A stretch of DNA of 64,000 nucleotides, taken from contig CAVSGO010000008.1 of NCBI GenBank assembly GCA_963727525.1, forward strand, positions 160,001-224,000. The letters run 5' to 3'. Of the stretch, positions 650 to 41,548 are shown piece by piece. Under the pieces are notes generated by a model, which was given only the letters and a program-made list of their open reading frames with translations, did no database searches and was not told the DNA's origin. This stretch comes from an uncultured bacterium. GTDB taxonomy: Bacteria > Krumholzibacteriota > Krumholzibacteriia > LZORAL124-64-63. Within the stretch, counting starts at the first letter, position 1; each line of letters opens with the position of its first letter. Made by a program: the position numbers and the translations under genes.

Positions 650-3600
650 ATGCGCTGCCGCACTGCGCTCGTCTCTCTGGCTCTCGTCGTGTCGTGTTTC
701 GCGGTCGTGGCGCCCTCGCCGGCCCGCGCTGCGCGCATAGATCCGGAACTCCAGCGCATTCTCGACGAGCACGCGAAGATGGAGATCATCCCCGTCATCA
801 TGCTCTATCCCGAGAGTGCCGAGGGCACCCTCGACAGTCTCGACGTGCAGCTCGAGATGGCGGTGCCGTCGAAGCGGCGCGATGGCGTGATCGTGGCGAT
901 GAAGAAGCACGCGCGCAAGATCCAGTCCGACGCGTGGGCGATCCTGGAGGATCCTGATCATCCCGGCGTGCTCGCCTACTCGGAGATGCTCTACATGGCC
1001 AACGCCATCGCGTTCGGTGGCGATTCCCAGCTCATCCTCGCCGTGGCTGGCAACAAGAGCGCGGACGATGCGGTGCTCTTCTTCGACAAGGATTACGATC
1101 TGCTGACAGCGCAGCGGCAGGCCGCGCCGCGGCAGGACGACGGCATCAAGTCGGCGCGAGGCGACACCGTCTGGAACGTCAAGGCCATCCACGCCGATCG
1201 TGTGTGGAACGAACTGGGTTACAAGGGCGACGGGATCATCGTCGGGCACGTTGACACCGGGGTGTGGATGACCCATCCCGATCTGCGCGACCATATCTGG
1301 GTGAATCCGGCAGAGATCCCGGACAACGGCGTGGACGACGATGGAAACGGCTACGTGGACGACGTCCATGGCTGGGACTTCGGCGACCACGACAACGATC
1401 CCACCGACGACGCCGCCAACGCGGGGCACGGCACCCATACCGCCGGCACGCTTGCCGGCGACGGCACGGGCGGTATCCAGACCGGCGTGGCGCCCGATGC
1501 CACGATCATGCCGTGCAAGGTCTTCAACCAGGCCGGCGGCGGTTCGCTCGGCTCGATCTGGGAGGCGCAGCAGTACTGCGCCGAGAACGGGGCCCGCATC
1601 ATCACCATGTCGGTGAGCATCCGCGGCGATATCCCCACCCAGTTCCTGCGCAACGACCGCTATAACGCGCTGAGCCTGCGCAGCGCTGGTGTCACGGTCT
1701 TCAACTCCTCGGGCAACGACCACGGCGTGTTCGCGCCGCCGATCGAACTGGGCATGACGGCGCGGATCCCGGCGCCCTGGCGACCGGGCGTGCCCTACAG
1801 TTCCGCCGGCGGGATCATCTCGGTCGGCGGCACCGCGTACAAGAGCGACGCGATCTGGAGCGGCAGCAGCCAGGGGCCGGCCGACTGGGGTCAGGTGGAT
1901 CCGTGGTTCGACTGGCCGTACGATCCAGGCACCGGACTCGTGAAGCCGGACATCGTGGCGCCCGCTCAGGGCATCAATTCCACCTTCCCACCGAGCCTCT
2001 ACAGCGGCGAGACGTGGACGGGCACGTCCATGGCCTGCCCGCATGCCGCGGGCGTGGCGGCGCTCATGTTGCAGAAGAATCCCACGCTCTCGCCCGCGGG
2101 CATCGACAGCACGCTGGAGATGTCGGCGATCGATCGGGGCGATGCCGGCAAGGACAACGTCTTCGGCGCGGGCATGCTCGATGCCTACGCGGCCGTGTCC
2201 GCCGTGTCGATGGCGCAGGTGCCGAACCTCGAGGAGGTGGCATTCCTGCCCGATCCCGACGGCAATCAGGTGCTCGATCCGGGCGAGCTGCCCGGCATCG
2301 TCTTCACGCTGGCCAACGTGGGGCAGGTCGCGGCCACGAACGTCATCGGTCGGTTGCGCGTGGTGTCGAACCCGTTCGTGGCGATCTCCGGACAGTTCGG
2401 CAGCGATCGGGCCTCATTCCCCGACCTCGCGCCGGGTGAACAGGCCTCCAATGCGGCGTCGCCTTTCAAACTCGTGGTGTCCACCGCCGCTCCGCAAGGC
2501 TTTCCATTCACACTGCTGTTGACAGTGATGACCGGCGAAGGCTTCGAGCGCACGTTCGACATTCCCACCGCCGTCGGTTTGCCGGAGTTCCGGACCCACG
2601 ACGTGGGGCACGTGTACCTCACGGTCACGGACCAGGGCGGGGTGGGATACCTCGACGATTCCCGGGCCATCGGCCAGGGCATGGGTGTACAGGGGCAGGA
2701 GAGCGCGCTCTTCATCTCCTCGTTGTGGGCAGGGACGGACGCGTCGTATGTGTGCAACAACGACCTCACGGGCAACGGGGCCGATCCCGTGGAGTGGCGG
2801 ACGCGACTGATCCCGGTGGGCCGGGTGGCGGTGGCGTCGGGGCCGCCCTCGGCGCAGACATTCTCGGCCGCCTTCACCGACAGCGGTCACGCGAATCCGC
2901 GGGGCATCGAGGTGCGGCAGATCTCCTGGGCCCATCCGGACCCGCCCTACGACGATGTGGTCATGGTGCAGTACGCGATCGTCAATACCGGTGACGCGAC
3001 GATCACGGATTACTATGCGGGTCTATTCGCCGACTTCGATGTCATGGATTCGTTGCACGACGTGGGCGGTGTCGACACGGCGAATCGCGCGGTGTGGATC
3101 AAGTCCCTGGACGGCCCGTGCTATGGCGTGGCGGTGCTGGGCGACACGCCCGTCAGCAATATCTCGCTGATCGACAACCTCGTCTACATCTACGCCGACA
3201 GCTACATGCACGATGACGACAAGATGCGCTTCCTGCGCGGCGACCTGACCCAGGGCACGACAGCTCAGGAGTCGGACTGGTCGAGCGTGGCCGCGGCGGG
3301 GCCGTTCACGCTGGCTCCGGAGAGCGTGGTGCTCGTGACGTTCGCGTTCGTATACGGCGACGACGAGGCCCACTTCCTCGCCAACGTGCAGGCGGCCAAC
3401 AACGGGTACTCGCCCGTGGTAGCCGTGGATGACGGCCCGCGCGAGCTGCCCGCCAGCGTGCGGCTGCAGCAGAATCTCCCCAACCCCTTCAATCCCGACA
3501 CCGCGATCCGCTACACCGTGCCCACGTCCGGCGCCGTGGATCTCGCCGTGTACGATGTGAGCGGACGGCGGGTGCGCACCCTCGTCACGGGCACCGTGGC

Positions 3601-3730
3601 CGCGGGCGAGCACACGGTGCACTGGAACGGCCGCGACGAGAACGGCGGACTGGTACCTTCGGGGCTCTACCTCTACCGGGTAGTGGGCCACGGCGCCACG
3701 CTCACGCGCAAGATGATGCTCGTGAAGTGA
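650..3730 (+). CDS. Secreted S8 (subtilisin-like) serine peptidase with C-terminal FlgD-Ig domain
   Basis: Catalytic motifs VDTG, GHGTH, GTSMA; signal peptide; RBS GAGGAG before ATG 650; C-terminal PNPFNP...WNGRD motif. Confidence 0.92.
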   Translation: MRCRTALVSLALVVSCFAVVAPSPARAARIDPELQRILDEHAKMEIIPVIMLYPESAEGTLDSLDVQLEMAVPSKRRDGVIVAMKKHARKIQSDAWAILEDPDHPGVLAYSEMLYMANAIAFGGDSQLILAVAGNKSADDAVLFFDKDYDLLTAQRQAAPRQDDGIKSARGDTVWNVKAIHADRVWNELGYKGDGIIVGHVDTGVWMTHPDLRDHIWVNPAEIPDNGVDDDGNGYVDDVHGWDFGDHDNDPTDDAANAGHGTHTAGTLAGDGTGGIQTGVAPDATIMPCKVFNQAGGGSLGSIWEAQQYCAENGARIITMSVSIRGDIPTQFLRNDRYNALSLRSAGVTVFNSSGNDHGVFAPPIELGMTARIPAPWRPGVPYSSAGGIISVGGTAYKSDAIWSGSSQGPADWGQVDPWFDWPYDPGTGLVKPDIVAPAQGINSTFPPSLYSGETWTGTSMACPHAAGVAALMLQKNPTLSPAGIDSTLEMSAIDRGDAGKDNVFGAGMLDAYAAVSAVSMAQVPNLEEVAFLPDPDGNQVLDPGELPGIVFTLANVGQVAATNVIGRLRVVSNPFVAISGQFGSDRASFPDLAPGEQASNAASPFKLVVSTAAPQGFPFTLLLTVMTGEGFERTFDIPTAVGLPEFRTHDVGHVYLTVTDQGGVGYLDDSRAIGQGMGVQGQESALFISSLWAGTDASYVCNNDLTGNGADPVEWRTRLIPVGRVAVASGPPSAQTFSAAFTDSGHANPRGIEVRQISWAHPDPPYDDVVMVQYAIVNTGDATITDYYAGLFADFDVMDSLHDVGGVDTANRAVWIKSLDGPCYGVAVLGDTPVSNISLIDNLVYIYADSYMHDDDKMRFLRGDLTQGTTAQESDWSSVAAAGPFTLAPESVVLVTFAFVYGDDEAHFLANVQAANNGYSPVVAVDDGPRELPASVRLQQNLPNPFNPDTAIRYTVPTSGAVDLAVYDVSGRRVRTLVTGTVAAGEHTVHWNGRDENGGLVPSGLYLYRVVGHGATLTRKMMLVK

Positions 3731-3981: not shown

Positions 3982-6390
3982 ATGCTGCGTTTTGCCTGCT
4001 TGCTCGCCGTCGGCGTTGGCTTATGCCTGCCGGCGACCTCCGGAACCGCCCTGGCGGGTGCCTCCGCACCGCACCCCATGCCGGCGCATCCGGATCTGAT
4101 CCGGACGCTCGGCCCCACCAGGGTCGCCGCCCTCCAGCGCGCCGGATTGCCGGAGCGCGAGGGCTACGAGATGATGACCAGGAGCCTGCGCCGGACGCAC
4201 CTGGCCGCCGACAAGGCCCGCACGAACGGCACCGGCTCCTGCCTCTTCATTCTCTGGACGTTCCCCGACCACACGGCCGACACGGCGGATCACCCGCGCG
4301 GCGACTACGAGGACATGTTCTTCTCGATCGGCACCTACCCCACCGGCAGCATGAACGACTTCTACCTCGAGGCAAGCCACGGCACCTACCAGATCGGGGG
4401 TGTCGTGAGCGGCTGGACCACGTCCTCGCACACGTATGCGAGCTACGCGAACGCTGATGGCACGCAGGACTATTACACCTGCAAGGAGATGATCCGTGAC
4501 GTCATCGCGCAGCTCGATCCGGTGGTCGACTTCGCGCAATTCGACAACGATGGCCCGGATGGCATTCCCGACAGTGGCGACGACGACGGGAGCGTCGACT
4601 CCATCTTCTTCATCCACGCCGGCCCCGGCCAGGAAGCCTCCGGCAGCACCCAGGACATCTGGTCGCACGCCTGGTCGTTCTGGGACCTGACGACGAACGA
4701 CGGCGTGGACATCGGGCGGTACTCCGTGGAGCCCGAGGAGTTGCCGAGCGGGGACATGAGCACGATGGGCGTGTTCGCGCACGAGTACGGTCACGTGCTC
4801 GGCCTACCCGATCTCTACGACACCGACTATAGCTCGAGCGGTATCGGCGAGTGGGGCCTCATGTCGGGCGGTTCGTGGAACAGCCGCCCCGGCGACCTCG
4901 GCGGAAGCTGTCCGGCGCAGATGACGGCCTGGAGCAAGGCGCAGCTCGGTTGGGTGACACCGGTGGCCATCACAGCCACCACCACCGACCTGGTGCTGCC
5001 GGCCGCCGCCACACATGCGGTGGCGTACCGCGTGTGGCGAGACGGGGCCGCAGGCAGCGACGAGTACTTCCTCATCGAGAACCGCCAGAACGTGGGCTTC
5101 GACGCCGGGCTCGTGCGCCGTCAGGTCGACTACGGCCTGCCCCTGGCCGATGGCCTCTTGCTCTATCACGTCGACGACGCCATGGGCAGCAATACCAACG
5201 ATCACCACCGCCTCCTCGACGTCGAGGACGCCAGCCCCTGGATCCTGAACGACGGCAGCGCGCGCGAGAATCTCGACGGCGTGATCGACTACGGCGTGCG
5301 GCGCTACGTCTGGAGCTATAACCGCGGCGACAACGGCGACACGTGGCCGGGCTTCTCCGCCGTCAACGGCGATTCGACCGACTGGCTGTCGCCCCGCGAT
5401 CGCGATCGCTTCGCCGACGACACCACGCCGGGCGCCGAGGACTACGCCTGCGCGCCCACCGGCGTGGCCATCACACACATCGTGCTCAGTGGCGACGACG
5501 TGGTGGCCGACGTGGAGATCAACACGCCGCAGATCAGCACGCCGGCCGTGCCGGCCAGCGTGGTCTGGGACTTCGAGGACGGCATGCAGGACCTGCGCGG
5601 CTGCAATGCCGTCGCCCACTTCGACCAGACCCAGGCTGGAACCTGCGGCGGCCCGGGTGGCCTGTGGTTCGGCACCACGGGCTGGGACTACTGCGGCGGC
5701 GCGGGCTACGGCAACAACTGGGACGACGCCGTCGCGGTGGCGGCGCTCGTGGGTATCGACGCGGCGCCGCAGGTCATCCTGACGCACCGCTACGAGACCG
5801 AGTCGGGCTACGACTTCGCGCGCCTGGAGGTGCGGGCTGCCGACGTGGGTGCGGCCTGGACCACGCTCGGCTCGTTCAGCGGCAGCGCGAACTGCCGCAC
5901 CGATACCTGGACGATTCCGCCCACAGTGCTCGAGGCCGGCCGCGTGGGCGCCACCGGCAACGCCAAGGTCGAGCTGCGAATGCGGCTGACAAGCGACGGC
6001 TCCTACTCGCCGGAAGACGGCAACTTCTGCGGCGTGGGCTGGTGGGTCGATCAGCTCGAGGTCACCGGCACACCCACCGGTGTCGACGAGTTGCCAGGTG
6101 CGATGCCCACGGTGGCGCAGCTCCGCCCGCCGGTGCCCAATCCGTTCAATCCGCTCACCGTGCTGCCTTACTTCGTACCCACCGGCGCGCGCGCCGTGAC
6201 ACTGCGCGTGTATGACGCGCGCGGCAGCGCGGTGCGCATGCTCGTGTCGGGACCGGCCGCCCCCGGCTGGCAGGAGGCGCGCTGGGACGGACGCGACGAC
6301 GGCGGCAACCGCGTGGCGAGCGGCCTGTACTTCGCGACGCTGCAGGTCGACGGCACGCAGCGCACGCAGAAGGTCGCTCTCGTGAAGTGA
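3982..6390 (+). CDS. M6 family (immune inhibitor A-like) metalloprotease with C-terminal FlgD-Ig domain
   Basis: HEYGHVLGLPDLY zinc motif, EYFLIENRQ, signal peptide, PNPFNP...WDGRD C-terminus. Confidence 0.9.
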   Translation: MLRFACLLAVGVGLCLPATSGTALAGASAPHPMPAHPDLIRTLGPTRVAALQRAGLPEREGYEMMTRSLRRTHLAADKARTNGTGSCLFILWTFPDHTADTADHPRGDYEDMFFSIGTYPTGSMNDFYLEASHGTYQIGGVVSGWTTSSHTYASYANADGTQDYYTCKEMIRDVIAQLDPVVDFAQFDNDGPDGIPDSGDDDGSVDSIFFIHAGPGQEASGSTQDIWSHAWSFWDLTTNDGVDIGRYSVEPEELPSGDMSTMGVFAHEYGHVLGLPDLYDTDYSSSGIGEWGLMSGGSWNSRPGDLGGSCPAQMTAWSKAQLGWVTPVAITATTTDLVLPAAATHAVAYRVWRDGAAGSDEYFLIENRQNVGFDAGLVRRQVDYGLPLADGLLLYHVDDAMGSNTNDHHRLLDVEDASPWILNDGSARENLDGVIDYGVRRYVWSYNRGDNGDTWPGFSAVNGDSTDWLSPRDRDRFADDTTPGAEDYACAPTGVAITHIVLSGDDVVADVEINTPQISTPAVPASVVWDFEDGMQDLRGCNAVAHFDQTQAGTCGGPGGLWFGTTGWDYCGGAGYGNNWDDAVAVAALVGIDAAPQVILTHRYETESGYDFARLEVRAADVGAAWTTLGSFSGSANCRTDTWTIPPTVLEAGRVGATGNAKVELRMRLTSDGSYSPEDGNFCGVGWWVDQLEVTGTPTGVDELPGAMPTVAQLRPPVPNPFNPLTVLPYFVPTGARAVTLRVYDARGSAVRMLVSGPAAPGWQEARWDGRDDGGNRVASGLYFATLQVDGTQRTQKVALVK

Positions 6391-10075: not shown

Positions 10076-10510
10076 TCAGGCCCGGTGGTAGGGCATGCCC
10101 CGCATGATCGTCACCCCCCGGTAGATCTGCTCCACGAGCAGCGCCCGCGCCCACTCGTGCGTCAGGGTGAGGGACGATAGCCGCATGACCCTGTCGGCGC
10201 GCTCGCGCACTGCCGCCCCGAGCCCATCGGCCCCCCCGACGAGAAAGGCCACGCTGCCGTGAGCCCCGAGCAGGCGGGCCATGTCCGCACTCGTCACGTC
10301 GTCGCCATGCTCGTCCATGGCCACCACGTAGGTCGCCGAGGCCTCTCCCCCCAGCCGCCGCACCATTTCGCGTCCCTCCCGCTCGGGGTCCTGGTCCTTC
10401 AGTTCCACGACCTCGCACGGCGCAAGGGGGCGCAGGCGACGAAGGTATTCAGAGGTGAGGTGGGAGAGGTGGGGGTCTTTGACCCGCCCCACCGCAATCA
10501 GGCGTATCAC
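10076..10510 (-). CDS. rlmH: 23S rRNA (pseudouridine-1915-N3)-methyltransferase
   Basis: SPOUT motifs FLVGGADG, LSSLTLTHE, EQIYRG...PYH. Confidence 0.95.
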   Translation of the reverse strand: MIRLIAVGRVKDPHLSHLTSEYLRRLRPLAPCEVVELKDQDPEREGREMVRRLGGEASATYVVAMDEHGDDVTSADMARLLGAHGSVAFLVGGADGLGAAVRERADRVMRLSSLTLTHEWARALLVEQIYRGVTIMRGMPYHRA

Positions 10511-10515
10511 AATAG

Positions 10516-10657
10516 GTGCCTCGAAGAATGTTGATGGCCTAATCTGGGGTCTAACGATAGGCTCATTTTAGACCTAACATCACTATTTTTGTCCCTAAGT
10601 CATTCAGGTTCGGCTGATTCCTGATCAGTCCGACGACATCAACAATCATCGAGGCAC
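10516..10657. mobile_element. 142-bp MITE-like element with the ends of the IS at 31441 and 46692
   Basis: Left end GTGCCTCGAAGAATGTTGATGG matches the IS left end at 20/22; right end CATCAACAATCATCGAGGCAC is its imperfect inverted repeat; followed by AACC like both IS copies. Confidence 0.8.
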
Positions 10658-10703
10658 AACCCAGGGGTTGGCAAGTCGGCGATTGTCTGATGAGATGATA
10701 TCC

Positions 10704-11081
10704 ATGCACACTCCCCTCGCCATCACCCCCGTCGCCCCCGCCATGGTTCACCTGGCCGCGTTCGTCGCGTCCGGGGTGGCGGTGGCCGCGGTCATCGTGG
10801 GGGTGCGGCGCTGGTGGCTGGGGAAGTTGCCGGTGGCCGATGCGCCGGTCGCCGACCGGGCCGGGGCGCGGCAACGCGACGTGCGCTGGCGAGCCGCCGT
10901 GGCGCTCGCGGCAGGCGTGGCAGCAGCAGCGGTGCTCATGCCGGCGCTGGTGGCGTTGCGCCAGCTCTATGCGTTGCCGGGCTTCGGGGCGCGGCTCGTG
11001 GTGCTGCTGGTGGCGTTGCTGCTGCTGCTGGTGGCCGCGTTACTGGCGCTACTGCTGGCCGATCCGGGCGAGGATACCTGA
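10704..11081 (+). CDS. Divergent NuoA-like 3-TM protein
   Basis: Three TM segments; 'VRW...LMPALV' aligns by eye to NuoA 'VRFY...LFPWAV'; first gene of the nuo-like cluster. Confidence 0.55.
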   Translation: MHTPLAITPVAPAMVHLAAFVASGVAVAAVIVGVRRWWLGKLPVADAPVADRAGARQRDVRWRAAVALAAGVAAAAVLMPALVALRQLYALPGFGARLVVLLVALLLLLVAALLALLLADPGEDT

Positions 11082-11084
11082 GTC

Positions 11085-11942
11085 ATGTCCGCTACCTTGC
11101 ATGCCGCCGTCCTGGTGTTGCCGACCCTGGCTCTCGTGAGCGTGTGGCCGGAGGTGGACGCCTGGCTCGATCGCCGTCTCGCGACCGAGTCGCGCGAGGT
11201 GACGGGAAACTGGCGAGAGAGCTTGTGGCGTCTGGGACCGCGCGGGCGCGGGGGCTGGTTGCGCTTCGGGGCGTTGCTGCTGGCGCTGGCGCCTTTGCCG
11301 GCAAGCGCGCATCTCGTGGGGGCCGATCTCGACGCGGGACTCGCCTGCGTGCTGGCCGCAGGGTTGCTGGCGCTCGCGGGCGCCTGGCTCGACGATCCCC
11401 AAGAGGTGACAGCGCGTCTGCCGGTGGTGGCCATTGGCGGGCTGGCGCTGGCGCTGGCCGGGGTGCCCATCGTGGCGCGGGTCTCGAGCCTGAATCTGAG
11501 CGACATCGTCATTGCGCAGCAGGGGGGACTCGGCAACTGGTTCCTCTGGCGCGACCCCTTCCTGCTCCTGGTCACCGCGGGATACGTGGCCACGGCGGCG
11601 TGTCTGGTGCCGGATCTCGGCGCCCTGCGCGGTGTGACCGATGCGGCCGGGCCGGCGGCCTGGACGCTCGTCACGAGCGTGCTCGGCGCGTGCCTCTTCC
11701 TTGGCGGCTGGTGGGGCGTGGTGCCGCAGCTCGACGTGCCGCAGCTCGGTGTGGCGCCGATCGTGCATCTGGGGTGCAAGGTGTTCGTGCTGGCGGCGGC
11801 CCAGATCTGGTTGCGCGGACGGCTGCCGCAGCCGCCGCGAGGAACGCGGAGCGAGCCGCCGGTGCGTCTGCTGCTGCTGGCCACGCTGGCCGGCGCGGTG
11901 GGGTCGACCCTGTGGATGGTACTCTCGGGCGAGGTGCTGTGA
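11085..11942 (+). CDS. Divergent NuoH-like membrane subunit
   Basis: SLNLSDIVIAQ...NW, LFLGGW and K......IWLR..LP motifs typical of NuoH. Confidence 0.75.
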   Translation: MSATLHAAVLVLPTLALVSVWPEVDAWLDRRLATESREVTGNWRESLWRLGPRGRGGWLRFGALLLALAPLPASAHLVGADLDAGLACVLAAGLLALAGAWLDDPQEVTARLPVVAIGGLALALAGVPIVARVSSLNLSDIVIAQQGGLGNWFLWRDPFLLLVTAGYVATAACLVPDLGALRGVTDAAGPAAWTLVTSVLGACLFLGGWWGVVPQLDVPQLGVAPIVHLGCKVFVLAAAQIWLRGRLPQPPRGTRSEPPVRLLLLATLAGAVGSTLWMVLSGEVL

Positions 11943-11946
11943 GGTC

Positions 11947-12435
11947 ATGACGGAATTCGTCTTCGTGGTGCTCGCGGGCATCGTCCTCGCGGCGGCGGGC
12001 GTGGCCGTGCTGGCCGATGTGGCCATGCTCAGGCGCCGGGCGCTGCTGCTGCAGGTGCTGGCGCTCGCCGCGCTCGTGCTGCTGGTCGGCGCGGATCTGC
12101 CGGCGTGGGCAGTTCTCGTGGGCGGGCTCACCGGCGGAGGCGTGGTGCTCGCCGCGCACACGCGCGATGCGGACGCCGCGGCGCGGACGTCGGCCGACCA
12201 GCGCGTGGTGCCGGCGGTGCTGGCGGCGCTGGTCTTCGCGGGGTTGTATTTCGTGGTCGCGACAGGGCACTGGAGTGGTGCGCAGCCCGAGGTGCCGGTG
12301 GCGCTCACGGCGCTGATCGGCGCGCGACTGCTCACGCGCGATCTCGTGGTGCTGGTCCTGCTGATCGTCTTTTTGGCCGGTGCCGTGGCGGGGGCGGCTC
12401 GACTGGCGGGACGTCCGCCGAGGGGGGGGGCATGA
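11947..12435 (+). CDS. Divergent NuoJ-like membrane subunit
   Basis: About 5 TM segments; C-terminal IGARLLT.......AVAGAARLA resembles NuoJ; RBS GAGG; position in cluster. Confidence 0.65.
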   Translation: MTEFVFVVLAGIVLAAAGVAVLADVAMLRRRALLLQVLALAALVLLVGADLPAWAVLVGGLTGGGVVLAAHTRDADAAARTSADQRVVPAVLAALVFAGLYFVVATGHWSGAQPEVPVALTALIGARLLTRDLVVLVLLIVFLAGAVAGAARLAGRPPRGGA

Positions 12436-12728
12436 GCTGGGGATTGGCCCCGTTTCTGGCCGTTGGGGCGGCCCTGGCCTCTCTGGGGTGTCTGGCCCTT
12501 ATGGTGCGGCGGGACCTGCGTGGCTTGCTGCTGGGCCTCCTGCTCCTGCTGGCCGGGGCGTGCCTCGACTTCGCTGCGGCGTCGCGACTCCTCGTGGACG
12601 AACTCGATGGGCACCTGGCGGTGCTCGTGATCGTGGTGCTCGGCGTGGCCCAGGTGCTCGTGCTCACGGCGCTGGCGCGCGAAGCCGGCGACGATGACGA
12701 CACGATCATGCCCGGAGATGCGCCTTGA
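12432..12728 (+). CDS. Divergent NuoK-like subunit
   Basis: 98 aa, 3 TM; ...VRRDL...FAAASR....DGH pattern of NuoK; ATGA overlap with the upstream gene. Confidence 0.75.
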   Translation: MSWGLAPFLAVGAALASLGCLALMVRRDLRGLLLGLLLLLAGACLDFAAASRLLVDELDGHLAVLVIVVLGVAQVLVLTALAREAGDDDDTIMPGDAP

Positions 12729-14629
12729 GTGCCGGCGCCGTCCTGGTGCAGGTCGCGGTGATCGTCGCCTTGCCGACGCTCGCCGGGCTGAGCCTGATGG
12801 CGGTGGGCTCGCGCCATGGTCGTCAGCCGGTGAGCGCGTGGATCGCCGCCGGCGCGGCTGCGGTGGCGGCGCTGCTGGCGGTGCGCCTCGTTGCCTGGGC
12901 GGCCACTGGGGGTGCGTCCGCGCTGCCCGTGGGTGGTCAGCATGCGTGGCTCACTTCCGACAACGTCGCGATCGCCGTGGGTGTGCATGTCGATGGTGCC
13001 GCGCTGGCGCTGCTGTTGCTGACGACGGTCGTGCCGATGCTCGTGCTCGTCCACCGCGCTTCGCAGCCTGCGGACGTGCCCGACGCGGCGCCGGCCGCCG
13101 TACTCCTGCATGCGGCAGCGCTTGGCGGACTCGGCGTGGCCAGCGGACTCATTCCCCTCGTGACGTTCTGGTTGCTGGGCGGACTCGCCGCCGCCGTGCT
13201 CGTGGCGACGGGGCAGCCGCGCGCCACGGCGCTGGCGGCAGGCCGCGGCCTCTTCCTGGCCGAGGTCGTGGGCGTGATGGGGCTGGGACTGGCGGCCGTG
13301 ATCTGCCGTGTCGTCTGCTCGCCGGCCGATCCGTTCTCGCCCGCGACCACGCCGCTCGCGAGCGCGTGGCCGGCCGGGCCGATGCGGTCCCTGGCCGGGG
13401 CCGGGCTCCTGCTCGCGGCGGCCGCGCGCGCGTCGCAGTTGCCGCTCGCGTGGTGGCTGCCACGCGGGGGTGTGGCGCCGGCGTCGGCGCGCGCCGTCCT
13501 GCTGAGCGGTATGCACGGCGCGAGTGGACTCGTGCTCCTGTTGCGCTTCAACCTGCTCATGGACATGCCGGTGCGGATCGCCGCGCTCACACTGGGCGGG
13601 ACAACCGCGTTCGTACTCGCGTGCGTGGGGTTGGCACAGACGTCGCGGTCGCGCGCGGTGGGGAGCCTGGCTGCCCTGTCGCTCGCCGCGGCCCTCAGCG
13701 TGCTCGGCGCCGGGGGCGATCCTCGCACGGTGCTCGTACTCCTGCTCTCGCAGACGCCGGCGCTTGCCGTGCTGGCGCTGGTCACCGAAGGAAGCCTGAT
13801 CGGACGGCGCGGCACGACCGTCGCCTGGGTGATCGCGGCCACGGTGGTGGTGGGAATGCCCGGCACGGGCGGATTCCTCGCCTGGCGCGATGCGCTGGGC
13901 ACCCTGTTCACCGAGTCGGCACCCCTGCTCGTGGCCTTCGTGGTGCTCTGGCTGAGTCGTGTGGCGACTGTCGCGGTGCTCGTGCGATGGTGGCTGCACG
14001 ATCGGATGCGCAGCGAGTCGGCGGCACCGGCTGCGCCGGCTCCGGGGGGCGCGTTGATGGCGCTCGCGATATTCGCCTTGGCGAGCCTGCTCTGGCATGG
14101 CAGTGGTGGGGGCTGGTTGAGTCGGTTGCTCAATGCTGATCCGCAGGCCTCGCTGTTTCTGCCGCCGCCGTTGCCGTTCTGGCTGGCGGCTGCGCTACCG
14201 CTGGCCGCGATCGTCGTCGGCGCGCTGCTCGGCTGGACGGGGCGCACACGCTCGCCGGCTGAGGGATGGCCCTGGCCGCCGGCGCTGCACCACGTGCCGG
14301 CACGGCTGCGTCTGATGGTGGCCGGGCCGGGGCCGCTGGCCGCGGCGATGTCGCATGCATTGACGACGGTGGCGCGTGCCGTGGCGGGCTGCGACCGGGT
14401 CGTGGCCGTGGGCATCGTCGACGGTTGCGGCTGGATCGTGAGGGTCGTGGCGCGGATGGTCATGCTGATCGACCAGGGGCTCACTCGTCTCTTGACGGAA
14501 GGCACGGAACTGGTCTTCGATCGTGCCGGAGCGGCGATGCAGAGGGTGCAGACCGGTCGGCTCCGCGACGGCATGATCGTGGCCGTGGCCGTGGGAGTGG
14601 GCGTGGTGCTCGTCATGGTGGCGCGGTGA
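12725..14629 (+). CDS. Divergent NuoL-like antiporter-type subunit
   Basis: SQLPLAWWLP (cf. KSAQFPLHVWLP), GMPGTGGF, C-terminal VQTGRLR; TTGA overlap. Confidence 0.8.
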   Translation: MSAGAVLVQVAVIVALPTLAGLSLMAVGSRHGRQPVSAWIAAGAAAVAALLAVRLVAWAATGGASALPVGGQHAWLTSDNVAIAVGVHVDGAALALLLLTTVVPMLVLVHRASQPADVPDAAPAAVLLHAAALGGLGVASGLIPLVTFWLLGGLAAAVLVATGQPRATALAAGRGLFLAEVVGVMGLGLAAVICRVVCSPADPFSPATTPLASAWPAGPMRSLAGAGLLLAAAARASQLPLAWWLPRGGVAPASARAVLLSGMHGASGLVLLLRFNLLMDMPVRIAALTLGGTTAFVLACVGLAQTSRSRAVGSLAALSLAAALSVLGAGGDPRTVLVLLLSQTPALAVLALVTEGSLIGRRGTTVAWVIAATVVVGMPGTGGFLAWRDALGTLFTESAPLLVAFVVLWLSRVATVAVLVRWWLHDRMRSESAAPAAPAPGGALMALAIFALASLLWHGSGGGWLSRLLNADPQASLFLPPPLPFWLAAALPLAAIVVGALLGWTGRTRSPAEGWPWPPALHHVPARLRLMVAGPGPLAAAMSHALTTVARAVAGCDRVVAVGIVDGCGWIVRVVARMVMLIDQGLTRLLTEGTELVFDRAGAAMQRVQTGRLRDGMIVAVAVGVGVVLVMVAR

Positions 14630-14669
14630 GTCCGGCACACGGGTGCGCCGAACGCCGGGAGCGACGAAC

Positions 14670-16169
14670 GTGATACCGTCCTACTTGCTGTCGTGGATGA
14701 TCTTCGTGCCGCTGGGCGGCGCGGCGGTGATCGCGTGCCTGCCGGCGCGACGGCACGAGGTGATCCGCACGGTGGCGGCCTGCACGTCGGCGCTGCCGCT
14801 GGTGATGGGCGTGATCCTGCTGCTGCGCTTCCGGGCCGACGCCGTGACCTTCCAGTTCGTCGAGCACTACACGTGGATTCCTGCGTTCGGTATCGAGTAC
14901 TTCGTGGGCGTGGACGGTATCAGCCTGCCGTTGCTCGCGCTCACCGTACTGCTGGTGTTCCTCGCGCTCGTGACGTCGTGGCGCGTGGGGCAGGCCGTGA
15001 AGGGCTACTTCGCACTCATCCTCGTGCTGGAGACCGGTCTCATCGGCGCGTTCGGCGCGCTCGACGCGTGCCTGCTGTGGGTGTTCTGGGAAGTCGTGCT
15101 GGTGACGGTGTTCTTCCTGGTGGCCTTCTGGGGGCAACCCGGCCGCGAGACCGCCGCCACGCGCTTTCTCATCACCACGCAGGTCGGCGCCATGCTGCTG
15201 CTCATCGCGATCCTTGCGCTCCGGCAGCACGTGTCCGATCCCGTGACGGGTCGGCCGACGTTCAACCTCATCCTGCTGATGGATCAGGCGAATCACGACC
15301 AGTGGCTTTCGGTGGTGGCGACGCGCCATCTGCTGTGGTGCGGCATCGCGCTGGGCTGCGCGGCGCTGCTGCCGGTGGTGCCTCTGCACGTCTGGCTGCC
15401 ATCGTTGCATACACACGCCCAGCCCTCGATCTCGCTGCTCGTGGCCGGCGTGGTGGTGAAGCTGGGGGCCTACGGACTGCTGCGCATCGCCCTGCCCGTG
15501 CTGCCCGACGCCACGGCGTGGGGTGCGCCGGTCCTCGTGTGGCTGGGCGTGGTCGGCGTGCTCTGGGGCGGGTTCTGCGCTCTGGCAGCCGGCGAGCTGA
15601 GTCGCGTGGTGGCGTTCGGCAGCCTGAGCATCCTGAGTTTCGTGCCGCTGGGACTGGGGTCGCTCACGTCCGAGGGCCTGCACGGCGCCGCCGCGCTGCT
15701 GGTTGGCCACGGGCTCGTGCTGGGCATGCTCTTCGTGGCCGTGGGCGGGCTGCGCGACCGCGCCGGCCACCTCGACCTGCCGCGCTGGGGTGGTCTCTAC
15801 CGCCGCGCGCCGGTGCTCGCCGCGTTCTTCACCGCCGCCCTGCTGGCCGTGGTGGGCTTGCCGGGACTCGCCGTGTTCCCCGGCGTGGTGCTCGTGCTGC
15901 TGGGCGCCTTCGCGCGCGCGCCGCTGACGGCGGTGCTCGCCGCCGGCGGTCTCGTACTCGGCGCGTCGTGGGTGGTGCGCGTGGTGCTGCAAGTGTGCCT
16001 ACGCGAGCCGGTCGTCGACCTCGGCGACAACCCCGCGATCACGGCGCCGGAACTGGGTGTGATGGTGCCCCTCGGCGCACTCGTCCTGGCCCTCGGCCTG
16101 TATCCGCAACCCCTCCTCGTCATGGGCCGCACCGTGCTCGACGCTCTGCTGGCGGCGATCGGCGGCTAG
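14670..16169 (+). CDS. NuoM-like antiporter-type subunit
   Basis: WIPAFGIEYFVGVDGIS, FWE, PLHVWLP, KLGAYGLLR, GLYPQP. Confidence 0.9.
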   Translation: MIPSYLLSWMIFVPLGGAAVIACLPARRHEVIRTVAACTSALPLVMGVILLLRFRADAVTFQFVEHYTWIPAFGIEYFVGVDGISLPLLALTVLLVFLALVTSWRVGQAVKGYFALILVLETGLIGAFGALDACLLWVFWEVVLVTVFFLVAFWGQPGRETAATRFLITTQVGAMLLLIAILALRQHVSDPVTGRPTFNLILLMDQANHDQWLSVVATRHLLWCGIALGCAALLPVVPLHVWLPSLHTHAQPSISLLVAGVVVKLGAYGLLRIALPVLPDATAWGAPVLVWLGVVGVLWGGFCALAAGELSRVVAFGSLSILSFVPLGLGSLTSEGLHGAAALLVGHGLVLGMLFVAVGGLRDRAGHLDLPRWGGLYRRAPVLAAFFTAALLAVVGLPGLAVFPGVVLVLLGAFARAPLTAVLAAGGLVLGASWVVRVVLQVCLREPVVDLGDNPAITAPELGVMVPLGALVLALGLYPQPLLVMGRTVLDALLAAIGG

Positions 16170-23539: not shown

Positions 23540-23553
23540 GAGGAGGTGTGACC

Positions 23554-24108
23554 ATGAAGAGCATCCTGCTCGCACTGCTCGTGCTGGCGCTGGGCGCATC
23601 CGTCGCGCAGGCCCAGTCCGGCGGTCCTTACGATCTGAGCTGGTCCACCATCGATGGCGGCGGCGGTACGTCCAGCGGTGGTGTCTACTCGCTGAGCGGC
23701 ACCGCCGGCCAGCCCGACGCGGGCGTGCATACGGGCGGCGCCTATGCGTTGCAGGGCGGGTTCTGGTACAGCGGCCTGCTCGCCACCGGCGTGGGCGACG
23801 AGCCGCTGCCCGACGAGACCATGCTGCCGCTCGTGTATCGCCTGTACGACGCGGCGCCCAACCCGTTCAACCCGCGCACGCAGATCGCCTTCGATCTGCC
23901 GCGCACGGGCACGGTACGGCTGTGCGTGTATGACCTGCGCGGCATGCTCGTGCGCACGCTGGAGTCGGGCACGCTGCCGGCCGGACACCACGTCCGCACG
24001 TGGGACGGTGTTGACGACGGCGGGGCCACGGTGGCCAGCGGCACCTACATCATGACCATCGACGCGGGTGACTATCACGCGCGCAAGAAGGGTGTGTTGC
24101 TGAAGTAG
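23554..24108 (+). CDS. Small secreted protein: 'YDLSWSTIDGGG' domain plus FlgD-Ig domain
   Basis: RBS AGGAGG; signal peptide; Gly-rich domain ending GGFW; PNPFNP C-terminal domain. Confidence 0.8.
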   Translation: MKSILLALLVLALGASVAQAQSGGPYDLSWSTIDGGGGTSSGGVYSLSGTAGQPDAGVHTGGAYALQGGFWYSGLLATGVGDEPLPDETMLPLVYRLYDAAPNPFNPRTQIAFDLPRTGTVRLCVYDLRGMLVRTLESGTLPAGHHVRTWDGVDDGGATVASGTYIMTIDAGDYHARKKGVLLK

Positions 24109-34313: not shown

Positions 34314-36062
34314 TCATCGCACCACGATCACGCGGCCCGATACCGCAGTGCCTCCGGCGACGGCCCGTACGAGATACACACCGGCCGGTACGTCGCGGCC
34401 GGCGCCGTCGCGGCGATCCCAGGTGACGACGATGGTGCCGGCACCACGCGCCGCGCCGTGGAGGAGGGTGCGCACGTGGCGGCCGCGGACATCGAAGATC
34501 GCGAGGTCGAGAGCGTCGCCGTGCGGCACGGACAGGGACAGACGCGCGCGCGCCGCGTCCGGACCACCCAGTACCGTCAACGCGAGGTCGTGCGGAGACG
34601 ACACGCCATCCACCGCCGTCGCATCGCCGTCGCGCACGCGGTCGCAGTACACGTCAGGTTCGTAGAGGGAGTCGCGGTCGTCGGGCCAGGTCACGATGAT
34701 GCCGTCGGCGCCTCGGACGAGGTCGGGACGCTGCTGGTTGCCGGGTGCGACGCACACGGCCACACCATCGTCGGCCCATTGCGGCCGGCCGGCGTCGTCG
34801 ACGTGCTGGGCGTAGATGTCCTCGAGGCCTGTGCCGCTGCGGTTATCCTCCCAGGCCAGGAATGCGCCGCCGCTGCCGTCGGCCACGAGATCGACGTCGC
34901 GCTGGGCATCGAGGGCGGCACACACGGCGACACCGTTTAGCGCCCACGCCGGTGCGCCGGCGGCGGTGATCCGCTGGGCGTAGATGTTCAGGTTCCAGGG
35001 TGGGCCGCTGGCGTCGCGGTAGTCGAACCAGGCAACGACGGCACCACTCGCGCCGTCGGTATCCAGGGCGGGGCGATACTGCGACTCGGCGGCGGTACAC
35101 ACGGTGCTGCCGCCGGCCGTCCACCGTGGGGCGCCGTTCGCGGCGGCGAGCTTCTGGCCGTAGATGTCGGGCGAGCCACTGCGCCGGTCGACCCAGGCGA
35201 GGAGCACGTCGCCGTCCTCGGCCCGGCGTGCGGTGATGGCATCCTGACCGCCGCTGCCGGTCGCCACCGGTATGCCGTTCGCCGTCCACAGGGCCGTGCC
35301 CGCCGTGTCGAGGCGCTGAGCGTAGACGTCACCGACGTCGTCGCGCGCATCGCTCCAGGCCACGAACGCGCCGCCCTGGCCGTCGGCGCACACGGTGGGG
35401 CCGTCCTGGTCCCATGCGAAGGCGACGACCGGCAGGGACTGACCGCCGTTCCACAGCGGCTGGCCTCCGCCGTCGATGCGTTGCGCGTGGATGTCGTAGA
35501 ACACGGGATCGTCGTTCTTGTCCTGCCACACCACGATGAGTCCGTCGGCTCCGTCACGGCATGCGGTGGGCTGGTCTTCCATACCGGTGCGCGCCGCGAC
35601 CGCCACGCCATTCGTGGTCAGCAGCGCGTGGCCTCCGGCGTCGAGGTGCTGCACGTACACGTCGCGCGCCCGCGCGGCGAACGCGCGCTCGTCCTGCCAG
35701 ACGATCCAGGCGCCGCCGGTGCCGTCGGACACCAGCGGCGTGAAGCCGGTGGTACTCGTGGATGAGTGGTAGAGGGCCTGATCGCCCGCGGCCGTGCACA
35801 CCGGCACGCCGTCGGCCGTCCACAGCACCGTGCCGTTGGCGGCCACACGCTGGGCGTAGAGGTCGCGGTCGTCCGTGCGCTGGTCCTCCCAGGCCACGAT
35901 CGCCCCGCCGGCGCCGTCGGTGACGACGAACACGTCGCTCTTGGCGCCCTGTGCCAGGCTCACGGGTACGTTGACGGTGGGGTCGTCGGGCCAGGCAGCC
36001 AGGGCGGGCGCCACCAGGGCGAACACGAACAGCGCAAGGTTGGAGCGACGAGCGATGGACAT
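34314..36062 (-). CDS. Secreted repeat (probable beta-propeller) protein with FlgD-Ig C-terminus
   Basis: About 8 repeats DG.GGA...W.D.R....D.YAQ....G...W...G; C-terminal WDRRD..G..VPAGVY. Confidence 0.8.
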   Translation of the reverse strand: MSIARRSNLALFVFALVAPALAAWPDDPTVNVPVSLAQGAKSDVFVVTDGAGGAIVAWEDQRTDDRDLYAQRVAANGTVLWTADGVPVCTAAGDQALYHSSTSTTGFTPLVSDGTGGAWIVWQDERAFAARARDVYVQHLDAGGHALLTTNGVAVAARTGMEDQPTACRDGADGLIVVWQDKNDDPVFYDIHAQRIDGGGQPLWNGGQSLPVVAFAWDQDGPTVCADGQGGAFVAWSDARDDVGDVYAQRLDTAGTALWTANGIPVATGSGGQDAITARRAEDGDVLLAWVDRRSGSPDIYGQKLAAANGAPRWTAGGSTVCTAAESQYRPALDTDGASGAVVAWFDYRDASGPPWNLNIYAQRITAAGAPAWALNGVAVCAALDAQRDVDLVADGSGGAFLAWEDNRSGTGLEDIYAQHVDDAGRPQWADDGVAVCVAPGNQQRPDLVRGADGIIVTWPDDRDSLYEPDVYCDRVRDGDATAVDGVSSPHDLALTVLGGPDAARARLSLSVPHGDALDLAIFDVRGRHVRTLLHGAARGAGTIVVTWDRRDGAGRDVPAGVYLVRAVAGGTAVSGRVIVVR

Positions 36063-39376: not shown

Positions 39377-40888
39377 GTGGTCGACGTTTTGCCGATGACC
39401 GCCGCCGATCCCGCCACGCTGTCGTCGTGGCGGCCGGAGCTGCTGCTCATCGCCACGTTCCTCGCCACCATGCCCCTGTCGCTCGTCGCGCGCGGACGGC
39501 TCCCCGGACTCACACGATTCGTCGCCATCGTCGGACTGGTGGCAGCCGCGTCCGCGGCGATCATTGGGCTCGGCAATGGTCCGACCGGCGTGCTCGGTCC
39601 GGTGCTCGTGGTCGATCCCCTGGCGGCTCTCGTGCGCGCCTTGCTCGTGGTCGCGGCGCTGGCGGCGGTGGTGCTGGGATCGCGCCAGTGGCGGGGGCGG
39701 CCCGCGGTGCACGATCTGGGTGTCGCCGTCATTCCCTTCCTCATGCTGCACACCCTGGCCGCCTGCGTCGTGGTGGAGGCGCGCGGCATCGTGGGCATCG
39801 TCGTGGGCGTGATGGGTCTGGGCGTCATGGGCACGCTCGTGGCCGGCCTCGCAGCCCGGACGCCGCAGGCTCGCGCGGCGGCCCTGCGCTTCGGTGTGGG
39901 CATCGCGGCGGGAGCGGCCGTGGTCACTTACGGGGTCTCCCTTCTGTACCCCATGGTCGGGACCGACGACCTCGCCGCCATGGGCACCGCGCTCCTGGCC
40001 GGGCTGCCCACGCGCGGCGCGATGATCGTGATCGTCGTCCTGCTGGTGCTCGGGCTCACGGGTCTCGCGGTCACCACACCTCTCACCTGGCGACGGGCTG
40101 GGGCGCGCTCTGCCGACGACCTCCCGCCCATGATCATCGGCTATCTTTCCACCGTGCCGCCGCTGGCCATCCTTGTCCTGCTGTGGCGGCTGGCGCGCGC
40201 ACTCGCCGGGTCGATCGGCGACCCGAGCGCGGCGGCCCTGCAGCGTCTGTTGCCGTGGCCCGGTCTGCTCACGGGGCTCGCCGTGGCGGCCATGACGCTC
40301 GGGGCCGTGCTGGCATTGCGCCAGCAGCGCGTCACGGTGCTCCTGGCCTGGCTGGCCGTGGCGCAGGCGGGCTATGGCCTGCTGGCGCTGATCGCTGCGC
40401 CGGAGGTGCTCCTGGCGCCCACCCTGCTGCACCTGGGGTTCTTCGCGCTCGCCAACCTGGGCGCCTTCGGACTGGCTCAAGTGGTGGTTGCGGCCCGGGG
40501 TGACGACGCGCGGGCGGCCTTCGTGGGCTGGGGACGCCGGCAGTTCCTGCCGGCGGCGATGCTCGCCGTCTTCCTGATGTCGCTGGCCGGCATGCCGCCG
40601 ACAGTCGGTTTCGTGGCGCGGGTGCGGTTGCTGGCCGCCCTGGTGGAGACCGATCGCCTCGGTCTGGCCGTCACGGTGGCGGGCCTCGGCCTGCTGGCCG
40701 CGTTCGGGTATCTGCGCGTGGTGATCGACATGTTTCGCCCGGTGAGACCCGAGAGCGAGGTGACGACGGTGGACCTGGGTCCGCTGGCCATGCTGTCGCT
40801 TCTGGCCCTGCTGGCCCCGGTCCTGGCCGGCGGACTCGTCTGGCATTTGTTGACGGCCGTGGCGATCCGGGCGGCGACCGGGCTGTGA
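39377..40888 (+). CDS. Divergent NuoN-like antiporter-type subunit
   Basis: PEL N-terminus, YGVSLLY...GT, NLGAF, SLAGMPPTVGF, YLRVV..M. Confidence 0.8.
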   Translation: MVDVLPMTAADPATLSSWRPELLLIATFLATMPLSLVARGRLPGLTRFVAIVGLVAAASAAIIGLGNGPTGVLGPVLVVDPLAALVRALLVVAALAAVVLGSRQWRGRPAVHDLGVAVIPFLMLHTLAACVVVEARGIVGIVVGVMGLGVMGTLVAGLAARTPQARAAALRFGVGIAAGAAVVTYGVSLLYPMVGTDDLAAMGTALLAGLPTRGAMIVIVVLLVLGLTGLAVTTPLTWRRAGARSADDLPPMIIGYLSTVPPLAILVLLWRLARALAGSIGDPSAAALQRLLPWPGLLTGLAVAAMTLGAVLALRQQRVTVLLAWLAVAQAGYGLLALIAAPEVLLAPTLLHLGFFALANLGAFGLAQVVVAARGDDARAAFVGWGRRQFLPAAMLAVFLMSLAGMPPTVGFVARVRLLAALVETDRLGLAVTVAGLGLLAAFGYLRVVIDMFRPVRPESEVTTVDLGPLAMLSLLALLAPVLAGGLVWHLLTAVAIRAATGL

Positions 40889-40936: not shown

Positions 40937-41548
40937 ATGACCTTTCCGCAATCCTTCTATCGCTGGCGTCCGCATCCCTGGCACGGACTCGAGGTGGGGC
41001 CGCAGCCGCCCGAAGTCGTCACCGCGTACATCGAGATCACGCCCTACGATCTGGTGAAGTACGAGGTGGACAAGAGGACCGGGTACCTGCGTGTGGACCG
41101 GCCGCAGCGGACCTCGTCGCAGCCACCGGCGCTCTACGGTTTCATCCCACGCACGTTCTGCGGCCGGCGCGTGGGCGCGCTCTCGCCCGCGGCGGCACGC
41201 GGCGACGGCGACCCGCTCGACGTCTGCGTAATCAGCGAGCGCCCGATCAACCGCTCCGAGGTCATCCTCAGCGCCCGCGTGGTGGGCGGCCTGCGGGTGA
41301 TCGACCACGACGAGGCCGATGACAAGATCGTGGCCGTGCTCAACAACGACAACGTCTGGAGCCACGTGCGCGAGATCGCCGAGCTGCCGACCGCGCTGGT
41401 CGACCGACTGCGTCACTACTTCGCGACATACAAGCAGCTCCTGGGGGAACCCGCGCACCTGCTCGTGCAGGAGACGTACGCGGCGGCCGACGCCTTCAAG
41501 GTGATCGCCGCGGCCATGGCCGACTACGACGACGAGTACGGCGCCTAG
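40937..41548 (+). CDS. ppa: Inorganic pyrophosphatase (family I)
   Basis: HPWH, KYE.DK, YGFIP, GDGDPLD, DDKI. Confidence 0.93.

Follow-up and report, generated by a model that had tools for sequence, protein, structure and literature searches.

Introduction

Respiratory complex I is the closest described relative of the genes analysed here, and its membrane subunits are usually discussed only as proton-pumping parts. According to passages of PMC9271201, the residues involved include the ion pairs E144/K234 of NuoM, K229/D178 of NuoL and K217/E133 of NuoN, while the central K265 and K247, H322, and the terminal E407, K395, K399 and D400 also lie in the proton path. Partial operons that carry the membrane arm alone (nuoAHJKLMN, termed 'NDH-1 partial operon 2') occur in the marine actinomycetes Salinispora, Streptomyces and Kocuria; in excerpts of the corresponding papers (PMC3314556, PMC6676996, PMC8622039) they are reported as horizontally acquired and proposed, without experimental test, to be ion pumps for marine adaptation. 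A third related system is the Mrp-type cation/H+ antiporter, composed of redox-independent NuoL/M/N-like (PF00361) and NuoK-like subunits.

Here, we describe a cluster of degenerate complex I-like genes in an uncultured bacterium of the phylum Krumholzibacteriota (assembly GCA_963727525.1). The window, that is, the whole stretch of DNA analysed, comprises 64,000 nucleotides of contig CAVSGO010000008.1 (positions 160,001 to 224,000, forward strand), and the cluster occupies its positions 10704-16169, with a NuoN-like gene (N') displaced downstream. This cluster is an in-situ descendant of a complete 11-subunit operon, nuoABCDHIJKLMN, and it probably specifies a maintained, redox-uncoupled and non-pumping membrane-arm pseudo-complex rather than a group of pseudogenes.

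With the 11-subunit form of complex I that sister genera carry at this locus, the cluster shares its position, the order of the surviving genes and the predicted folds (hhalign probabilities of 95.8-100% for H, J, K, L, M and N). Unlike complex I, it has no NuoB, C, D or I, keeps 2 of 49 invariant Asp/Glu/Lys/His positions of H/J/K/L/N, encodes a NuoM without K234, H322 and E407, and consists of proteins with 57-64% Ala+Gly+Leu+Val; in addition, the L-like protein is shortened to ~420 residues in one sister genus, and in the present genome the N-like gene has moved 23 kb away. All seven membrane subunits have a counterpart: H, J, K, L, M and N' are matched by profile, and A by position and three-helix topology only.

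Like the actinomycete partial operons, the cluster is limited to the membrane arm (A-H-J-K-L-M-N), has no flavin or Fe-S subunits and coexists with complete complex I. The actinomycete order, A-(hyp)-H-J-K-L-M-N, resembles the contiguous A-H-J-K-L-M-N' of the sister genus, N' being 23 kb away in the present genome. Unlike the actinomycete operons, as compared through their published description, the cluster arose by in-place deletion and has been stripped of its proton-path residues. Synteny and the NuoM tree (support of 99, in a tree that holds no actinomycete sequences) point to an origin independent of the actinomycete operons. Compared with Mrp antiporters, the cluster has NuoH- and NuoJ-like genes, its profiles match NuoL, NuoM and NuoN specifically, and the Lys and Glu residues common to Mrp and complex I are missing. 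Indeed, Pfam scans of every cluster gene detected none of the Mrp families sought (MrpE/F/G, MrpA-type fused subunit). A full-text literature search returned no charge-stripped partial nuo operon, nor one formed by in-place deletion, and the titles and abstracts on Krumholzibacteriota and NADH dehydrogenase contained nothing relevant.

Organization of the cluster

The GC content of the window is ~70% (64-75% across the window). Genes were called from GC3 periodicity and with a codon-usage caller trained on the same genome; gene starts are the caller's own. Six co-directional genes of the plus strand, joined by 4-nt overlaps or tiny gaps, constitute the cluster, which is listed below with its upstream region and the displaced N-like gene.

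10076-10510, minus strand: rlmH, SPOUT methyltransferase (PF02590, 125.8 bits), synteny anchor to the nuo locus of sister genera
10511-10703, no strand: AT-rich divergent intergenic region between rlmH (minus) and the cluster (plus), putative promoter region
10704-11081, plus strand: gene at the NuoA position, 125 residues, open reading frame open from 10668, named by position and topology only
11085-11942, plus strand: NuoH-like, 285 residues (PF00146, 33.9 bits, partial; hhalign 99.2%)
11947-12435, plus strand: NuoJ-like, 162 residues (hhalign 96.2% over 145 columns; PF00499 only 11.9 bits)
12432-12728, plus strand: NuoK-like, 98 residues (PF00420, 33.9 bits; hhalign 95.8%)
12725-14629, plus strand: NuoL-like, 634 residues (PF00361, 29.9 bits; hhalign 98.8% over residues 12-627)
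14643-16169, plus strand: NuoM-like, 508 residues, or 499 in the database gene call (PF00361, 145.7 bits; hhalign 100%)
39377-40888, plus strand: NuoN-like, 503 residues (PF00361, 58.2 bits; hhalign 99.9% to NuoN over residues 11-500)

Upstream of the cluster and on the opposite strand lie rlmH, a PEGA-domain gene and a Big_7-domain gene. A scan for sigma-70 promoters found no plus-strand site ahead of the cluster. By Pfam, M is clearly recognised, H, K and L barely, and the A-like and J proteins not at all. M also aligns with the mycobacterial NuoM 8e9g_M at 254 bits. The curated PF00361 cut-off of 21.5 bits is passed by L, M and the N-like protein of the window; in the sister genus, the N-like proteins fall below it (15.3 bits or no match), and of two L-like proteins scanned, one gives no match.

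The A-like protein has no Pfam match and no detectable homology to NuoA, the hhalign probability of 2.7% being no better than that of NuoJ/NuoK controls. Its three hydropathy peaks are nevertheless positioned as in E. coli NuoA, and orthologues 24-50% identical occur in five loci of the sister genus and in one further assembly of that genus (G128).

Loss of the proton-path residues

For residue mapping, the cluster proteins were aligned with the E. coli K-12 nuo genes and nine canonical homologues, two of them from the complete operons in this genome and seven from operons of sister genera. Two independent approaches, MAFFT and hhalign profile-profile alignment, gave mappings that agree; E. 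coli numbering is used throughout. At almost all proton-path positions of H, J, K and L, the alignments place hydrophobic residues or Arg. In the NuoL-like protein, E144 is replaced by L, D178 by V, K229 by R, H254 by L, K399 by W and D400 by R, and H334, H338 and K342 are missing. NuoK E36 reads L and E72 reads Q, and NuoJ Y59 reads L. The NuoH-like protein has G at E157, its acidic loop between transmembrane helices (TM) 5 and 6 (R209, D213, E216, E220, E228, E241) is substituted or deleted, and the TM1-2 loop motif is absent, while K274 and R286 are retained. In the NuoN-like protein, mapped by hhalign, E133 is replaced by M, K217 by L, K247 by P and K395 by R. MAFFT sets V and A at NuoA D79/E81 in the A-like protein, despite the lack of detectable homology to NuoA.

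The NuoM-like protein, the one well-conserved member of the set, is less affected. Both methods find E144 and K265 retained and K234, E407 and H322 replaced by L, V and I, respectively. H241, H248 and H348 are also kept, and K173, D246, K312, H367 and R369 are lost. An earlier note on this DNA, made by eye from the sequence, had listed the losses in H, J, K and L and the mixed pattern of M; both formal alignments reproduce them, including the absence of the acidic loop of NuoH. Its GVAA reading for NuoA D79/E81 concerns the A-like protein, for which homology to NuoA is not detectable.

This pattern extends over the whole clade, since K234, H322 and E407 of M are absent in 8/8 members, K265, H241, H248 and H348 are kept in 8/8 and E144 in 6/8. 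The retained residues of M, its strong constraint (see below) and the interpretation of membrane-arm-only nuo operons as ion pumps in the portions of PMC3314556, PMC6676996 and PMC8622039 cited above would suit a redox-independent cation/proton transporter that uses E144, K265 and the His residues together with non-canonical routes. We consider such a transporter unlikely. The three residues of M lost throughout the clade are partners for the ion-pair switch and the proton hand-on (roles as described in parts of PMC9271201), the canonical Lys and Glu of L and N' are all lost or frozen as Arg, the acidic chain of NuoH/J/K/A is gone, the A-like protein having no detectable homology to NuoA, and no energy input module is encoded nearby. 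Because the ion pairs and terminal sites of L and N, K234, H322 and E407 of M and the acidic chain have been lost, the predicted pseudo-complex would be incapable of redox-driven or canonical antiporter-type proton translocation.

Selective loss of charge and retention of fold-defining residues

Loss of charged residues is selective and reflects neither chance nor uniform drift. When H, J, K, L and N' of the window are pooled, the 2/49 canonical-invariant Asp/Glu/Lys/His columns kept compare with 40/69 for Gly/Pro/Trp (Fisher test, p = 2e-10) and 54/162 for the other residues (p = 1e-5). The composition has shifted as well: Ala+Gly+Leu+Val reach 59-64% in the degenerate proteins and 57% in M, compared with 42-52% in the canonical homologues that this family has, and Lys is nearly 0% in the cluster proteins. 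Together with the elevated nonsynonymous divergence given below, these values bear out the suggestion of the earlier note that GC-driven drift towards Ala, Gly, Val and Arg had acted under relaxed selection.

Several conserved elements are shared by the clade and the canonical proteins. In the NuoH-like protein, these are SLNLxDIVIAQQGGxxNW...RDPF, GGWW, K274 and R286; in the NuoL-like protein, W149, P240, W244 and P252. The lateral-helix motif of NuoL, DRxVxDG(I/V)xxG, which is common to the cluster and complex I, is invariant in 17/17 aligned sequences, and the C-terminal anchor appears to be retained in the L protein of the window. The shortened L-like proteins of the sister genus (L039-L045) also retain the motif and, apparently, the anchor; the window copy, with 634 residues, is full length.

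Replacement of Lys by Arg is repeated, affecting K229 of L, K395 of N and, in 6/8 sequences, K158 of N. In L, the clade-invariant R235 (at the position of K229) is accompanied by an invariant E180, one helical turn from the lost D178, and these two residues could form a permanent salt bridge.

AlphaFold2 modelling of the NuoH-like protein gave a mean predicted local distance difference test score (pLDDT) of 75, and all top 50 matches in PDB were NuoH/ND1/NdhA. For the NuoL-like protein (pLDDT 67), NuoL/ND5/NdhF made up 48/50 of the top matches. The latter model contains a 73-residue helix (537-609) and a terminal helix (613-633), both at low confidence (pLDDT <50).

In-place descent from a complete nuo operon

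The distribution of the cluster was surveyed in 208 genomes of the phylum, which include nine species of a single sister genus within the family (g39). Since searches with L gave nothing above 26% identity, orthologues of the cluster were located through NuoM and synteny. Close NuoM orthologues (E<=1e-146) are present only in this genome and in 8/9 g39 species. In the ninth (assembly G128), the cluster lies on a contig that ends inside L; it is thus found in 9/9 g39 species.

Of 17 loci from other family genera, 14/17 have a complete canonical nuoA-B-C-D-H-I-J-K-L-M-N behind rlmH, and all three upstream genes are the same in 11/17. The NuoL of this complete operon is 43-49% identical to that of E. 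coli, with all key residues present, and the nearest relative of the window NuoM among the other family genera (41-45% identical) lies inside it. At the same place, this genome and 7/7 g39 loci with upstream sequence have the same three genes followed by A-H-J-K-L-M(-N') only. The order in these seven g39 loci (L039-L045) is the three upstream genes, A, H, J, K, L, M, a membrane protein of ~460 residues and an inorganic pyrophosphatase. Most of their junctions overlap or nearly so, and the A gene is uncalled in two of them (L040, L045). An eighth locus (L046), at a contig start, holds M and N' only.

In a maximum-likelihood (ML) tree of 29 NuoM sequences, the eight remnants form one clade (Shimodaira-Hasegawa-like approximate likelihood ratio test, SH-aLRT, 100), which is joined to the NuoM of the family-specific operon (SH-aLRT 99); this is a quick tree with long branches and a deviant composition of the remnant rows. 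The stem of the remnant clade measures 1.13 changes per site, and the NuoM proteins of the two complete operons of this genome, on contigs C3 and C7, fall outside. Hence the family operon of complex I, besides occupying the same locus, provides the nearest NuoM by tree. The shared locus behind rlmH and the grouping in the NuoM tree establish the in-place descent of the cluster. The B-C-D genes and the I gene were removed by two clean deletions, which left start/stop overlaps at the junctions. Matches of ~25% identity to NuoL in relatives were considered as orthologues of the divergent L and rejected, since they represent the canonical NuoL that the complete operon encodes at this locus.

The displaced NuoN-like gene

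The ~460-residue protein that follows M in g39 is a degenerate NuoN, as indicated by hhalign (NuoN 99.3%, NuoM 6.9%, NuoL 2.7%). On the same grounds, its identification with the Omp85-like gene seen in the window was rejected. Used as tblastn queries, the g39 N-like proteins match 39377-40888 of the window with 30-33% identity, over ~450 residues for four of the five matching queries and ~220 for the fifth. M and N' are adjacent in g39; in the present genome, they are split by ~23 kb of ordinary genes (16170-39376). This segment holds the Omp85-like gene, a DUF4390/histidine kinase/sigma-54 regulator set, a LolA-like gene with a MacB/FtsX ABC system, a TetR gene, a zinc-dependent alcohol dehydrogenase and an alpha-amylase. 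Marks of tRNA, integrase or transposase genes were sought in the 23-kb segment and none was seen. The N-like gene would have been separated from M later, by a rearrangement in this genome.

A soluble inorganic pyrophosphatase gene (40994-41548) follows the N-like gene here and in the six g39 loci that reach that far. The enzyme is 77-88% identical among g39 species, and it was not found downstream of nuoN in the six other genera checked.

Distinctness among public homologues

A word-indexed search with the NuoL-like protein matched only the protein itself. Exhaustive HMMER comparison with 1.84 billion representatives returned 384 matches at E<=1e-3, the best of which reached 82.7 bits and 26% identity. 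Among the 37 of these 384 matches that were aligned, E144 is kept in 34/37 and K229 in 37/37. The NuoM-like protein has 15 public relatives of 51-58% identity, and the next are at 44% and lower. At the four key positions of NuoM, the clade formed with these relatives reads E-[L/V]-K-[V/A/L] in 16/16 members, the window protein included. Outside the clade, 103/104 public homologues read [E/D]-K-K-E and one reads QQKE, the E. coli reference being EKKE. The same residues are therefore lost in homologues, a check proposed in the earlier note: K234 and E407 are missing throughout the NuoM clade and almost always kept beyond it.

Selection and integrity of the reading frames

Intact reading frames had also been claimed for this cluster. 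Indeed, no frame of the cluster is interrupted, either in the present genome or in the seven g39 loci that carry it whole (L039-L045), across 45-75% amino-acid divergence. When neutral evolution was simulated to the observed divergence, only 2-13% of the runs for a given species pair left H, L or N' stop-free. The gaps that separate orthologues all preserve the frame, 19/19 of them in one pair (H+J+K+L+N'), where ~1/3 would be expected under neutrality.

Constraint differs markedly along the cluster. Within g39, M is 68-82% identical and A, H, J, K, L and N' are 26-56% identical. Between genera, M is conserved at 51-56%, compared with 53-64% for the neighbouring peptidase, AmiA-like and RlmH genes. 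Ratios of nonsynonymous to synonymous divergence (dN/dS), computed by NG86, are 0.18-0.28 for M, 0.15-0.21 for the pyrophosphatase, 0.25-0.39 for RlmH and 0.34-1.03, mostly 0.5-0.75, for A/H/J/K/L/N'; with dS underestimated, these are upper bounds only, and only such bounds and relative dN were used. The dN of the degenerate genes, 0.35-0.55, is 3-5x that of M (0.10-0.13). Comparison of dN/dS among orthologues, another check that had been proposed, gives upper bounds that are lower for M than for most of A/H/J/K/L/N'. Disrupted orthologues, which would have spoken for pseudogenization, were not seen in the seven whole g39 loci, and the frame breaks of G128, discussed below, are attributed to assembly. 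Collectively, these results are consistent with purifying selection that is relaxed but real and acts on a non-pumping complex.

A slowly decaying, functionless operon, with frames still open because DNA of 70% GC yields few stops and decay has not run its course, is the alternative most directly confronted with these data. It would agree with the extreme divergence of the cluster, illustrated by an L-like protein that has no relative above 26% identity among the public representatives, with the drift of composition to GC-rich codons, with the low coding potential per codon of A, H and L (0.20-0.25, compared with ~0.36 in neighbour genes), with the large deletions in the g39 L-like proteins and with a dN/dS that is not reliably below 1. 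We nevertheless judge decay to be quite improbable. Frames stay open in eight loci of two genera at a divergence where each of H, L and N' would seldom survive stop-free under neutrality, and all insertions and deletions preserve them; the excisions of nuoB-C-D and nuoI were precise; structural residues persist while charges are lost; M is as conserved between genera as ordinary neighbours; and the N-like gene is intact after its separation from the operon.

Several observations weigh against a maintained pseudo-complex. The L-like proteins of g39 measure 396-427 residues and miss ~200 residues in the region of TM1-3 and TM10-13, so large parts of the arm are dispensable. The alignments supplied to AlphaFold2 held canonical homologues, so that a NuoH- or NuoL-like outcome was in part preset; in the L model, pLDDT is also <50 over the C-terminal half. 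By NG86, A/H/J/K/L/N' are no lower than two fast-evolving neighbour genes, and a codon-frequency-aware ML method gave saturated dS (2-40), so that dN/dS is not sound here. Assembly of the proteins is presumed from their homology to complex I subunits. Finally, the J and L frames are broken in G128 (L055, G128:C58:5000-12439). Since the housekeeping gene rlmH is broken too, this suggests assembly error rather than decay; the G128 assembly is 84% complete and 5% contaminated.

Taking both sides together, we retain a maintained membrane-arm pseudo-complex as the probable reading. A pseudogene cluster is disfavoured because the deletions are clean, the operon remains packed, the frames are open, fold residues are kept, M is constrained and N' stayed intact after relocation.

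Absence of a redox head and the other complex I operons

Profile scans and gene calls showed the cluster and its flanks to be devoid of nuoB, C, D, I, E, F and G. The genome measures 4.66 Mb in 8 contigs, and its only matches to E. coli NuoB and NuoCD lie in two complete operons located elsewhere: one of the 14-subunit type on contig C7 and one of the 11-subunit type, with a fused NuoCD, on contig C3. The statement of the earlier note that the cluster is not engaged in redox-coupled pumping is thus upheld, both by the residues lost and by the absence of nuoB/C/D/I from the cluster, none of which has been relocated in the genome. In g39, at least one NuoD occurs in each of five genomes examined. 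In 4/5 it is the only one and is part of a 14-subunit-type operon that encodes a membrane arm as well.

The peripheral arms of these other operons (C7 and C3 here, and at least one NuoD per g39 genome) could in principle serve the cluster as an alternative membrane arm, giving an uncoupled NADH:quinone oxidoreductase, a very remote prospect given that the NuoH-like protein has lost the NuoB/D-contact and quinone-cavity segments (TM1-2 loop motif, TM5-6 acidic loop), that the A-like loop is unrecognisable and that the complete operons encode full membrane arms of their own.

The C3 operon (209.8-220.6 kb, locus L053) encodes a NuoL of 756 and a NuoM of 553 residues. For this NuoM, a counterpart with 85% identity occurs in one g39 species only (1/9), and in the quick tree the protein lies outside the family-operon clade; this operon may have been acquired horizontally. 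Its role as a replacement of the lost complex was considered and rejected, given that C3-type NuoM occurs in 1/9 g39 species and is placed in the tree outside the clade of the family operon and the remnants.

Elsewhere in the window, four predicted secreted proteins (689-3730, 4078-6390, 23548-24108 and 34314-36062), namely an S8 subtilase, an M6 peptidase and two others, have a FlgD_ig-like C-terminal domain in common, which resembles a common sorting/anchoring tag.

Discussion

A maintained, non-pumping membrane arm probably arose as follows. In the common ancestor of this genus and g39, nuoB, C, D and I were cleanly deleted, and the seven membrane-subunit genes persisted, tightly packed in one operon. 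Once deprived of redox input, the proton pathway would no longer have been under selection, and under strong GC pressure, buried titratable Glu, Asp, Lys and His gave way to hydrophobic residues or to non-titratable Arg. Fold-defining residues, that is, Gly/Pro/Trp, the periplasmic motif of NuoH and the NuoL lateral helix that would clamp the arm together, appear to have been retained. The proteins would still be made and still assembled into a membrane-arm-like complex, whose retained value might lie mainly in the NuoM-like subunit, the others being its structural partners. The earlier note had left two explanations side by side, a new function or relaxed selection. Drift and relaxation are supported, and the data would be compatible with a new function as well as with mere relaxation.

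A wider and more tentative idea, to which we attach limited confidence, is that the membrane arm may outlive its enzyme as an assembled pseudo-enzyme whose second role, outside bioenergetics, would centre on the NuoM-like subunit. It might, for instance, scaffold or organise the membrane or cooperate with some other membrane system, and such an outcome may be recurrent.

The cluster amounts to a natural experiment, in which the quinone module and ~96% of the invariant charged residues were removed and seven membrane proteins were kept in two genera or more. Should the complex be made, the membrane arm would have a role independent of ion translocation. It would also offer a naturally "dead" reference, by which residues needed for fold and assembly could be separated from those needed for pumping. 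For the organisms themselves, automatic annotation of these genes as NADH-quinone oxidoreductase subunits would credit these uncultured bacteria with too much respiratory capacity.

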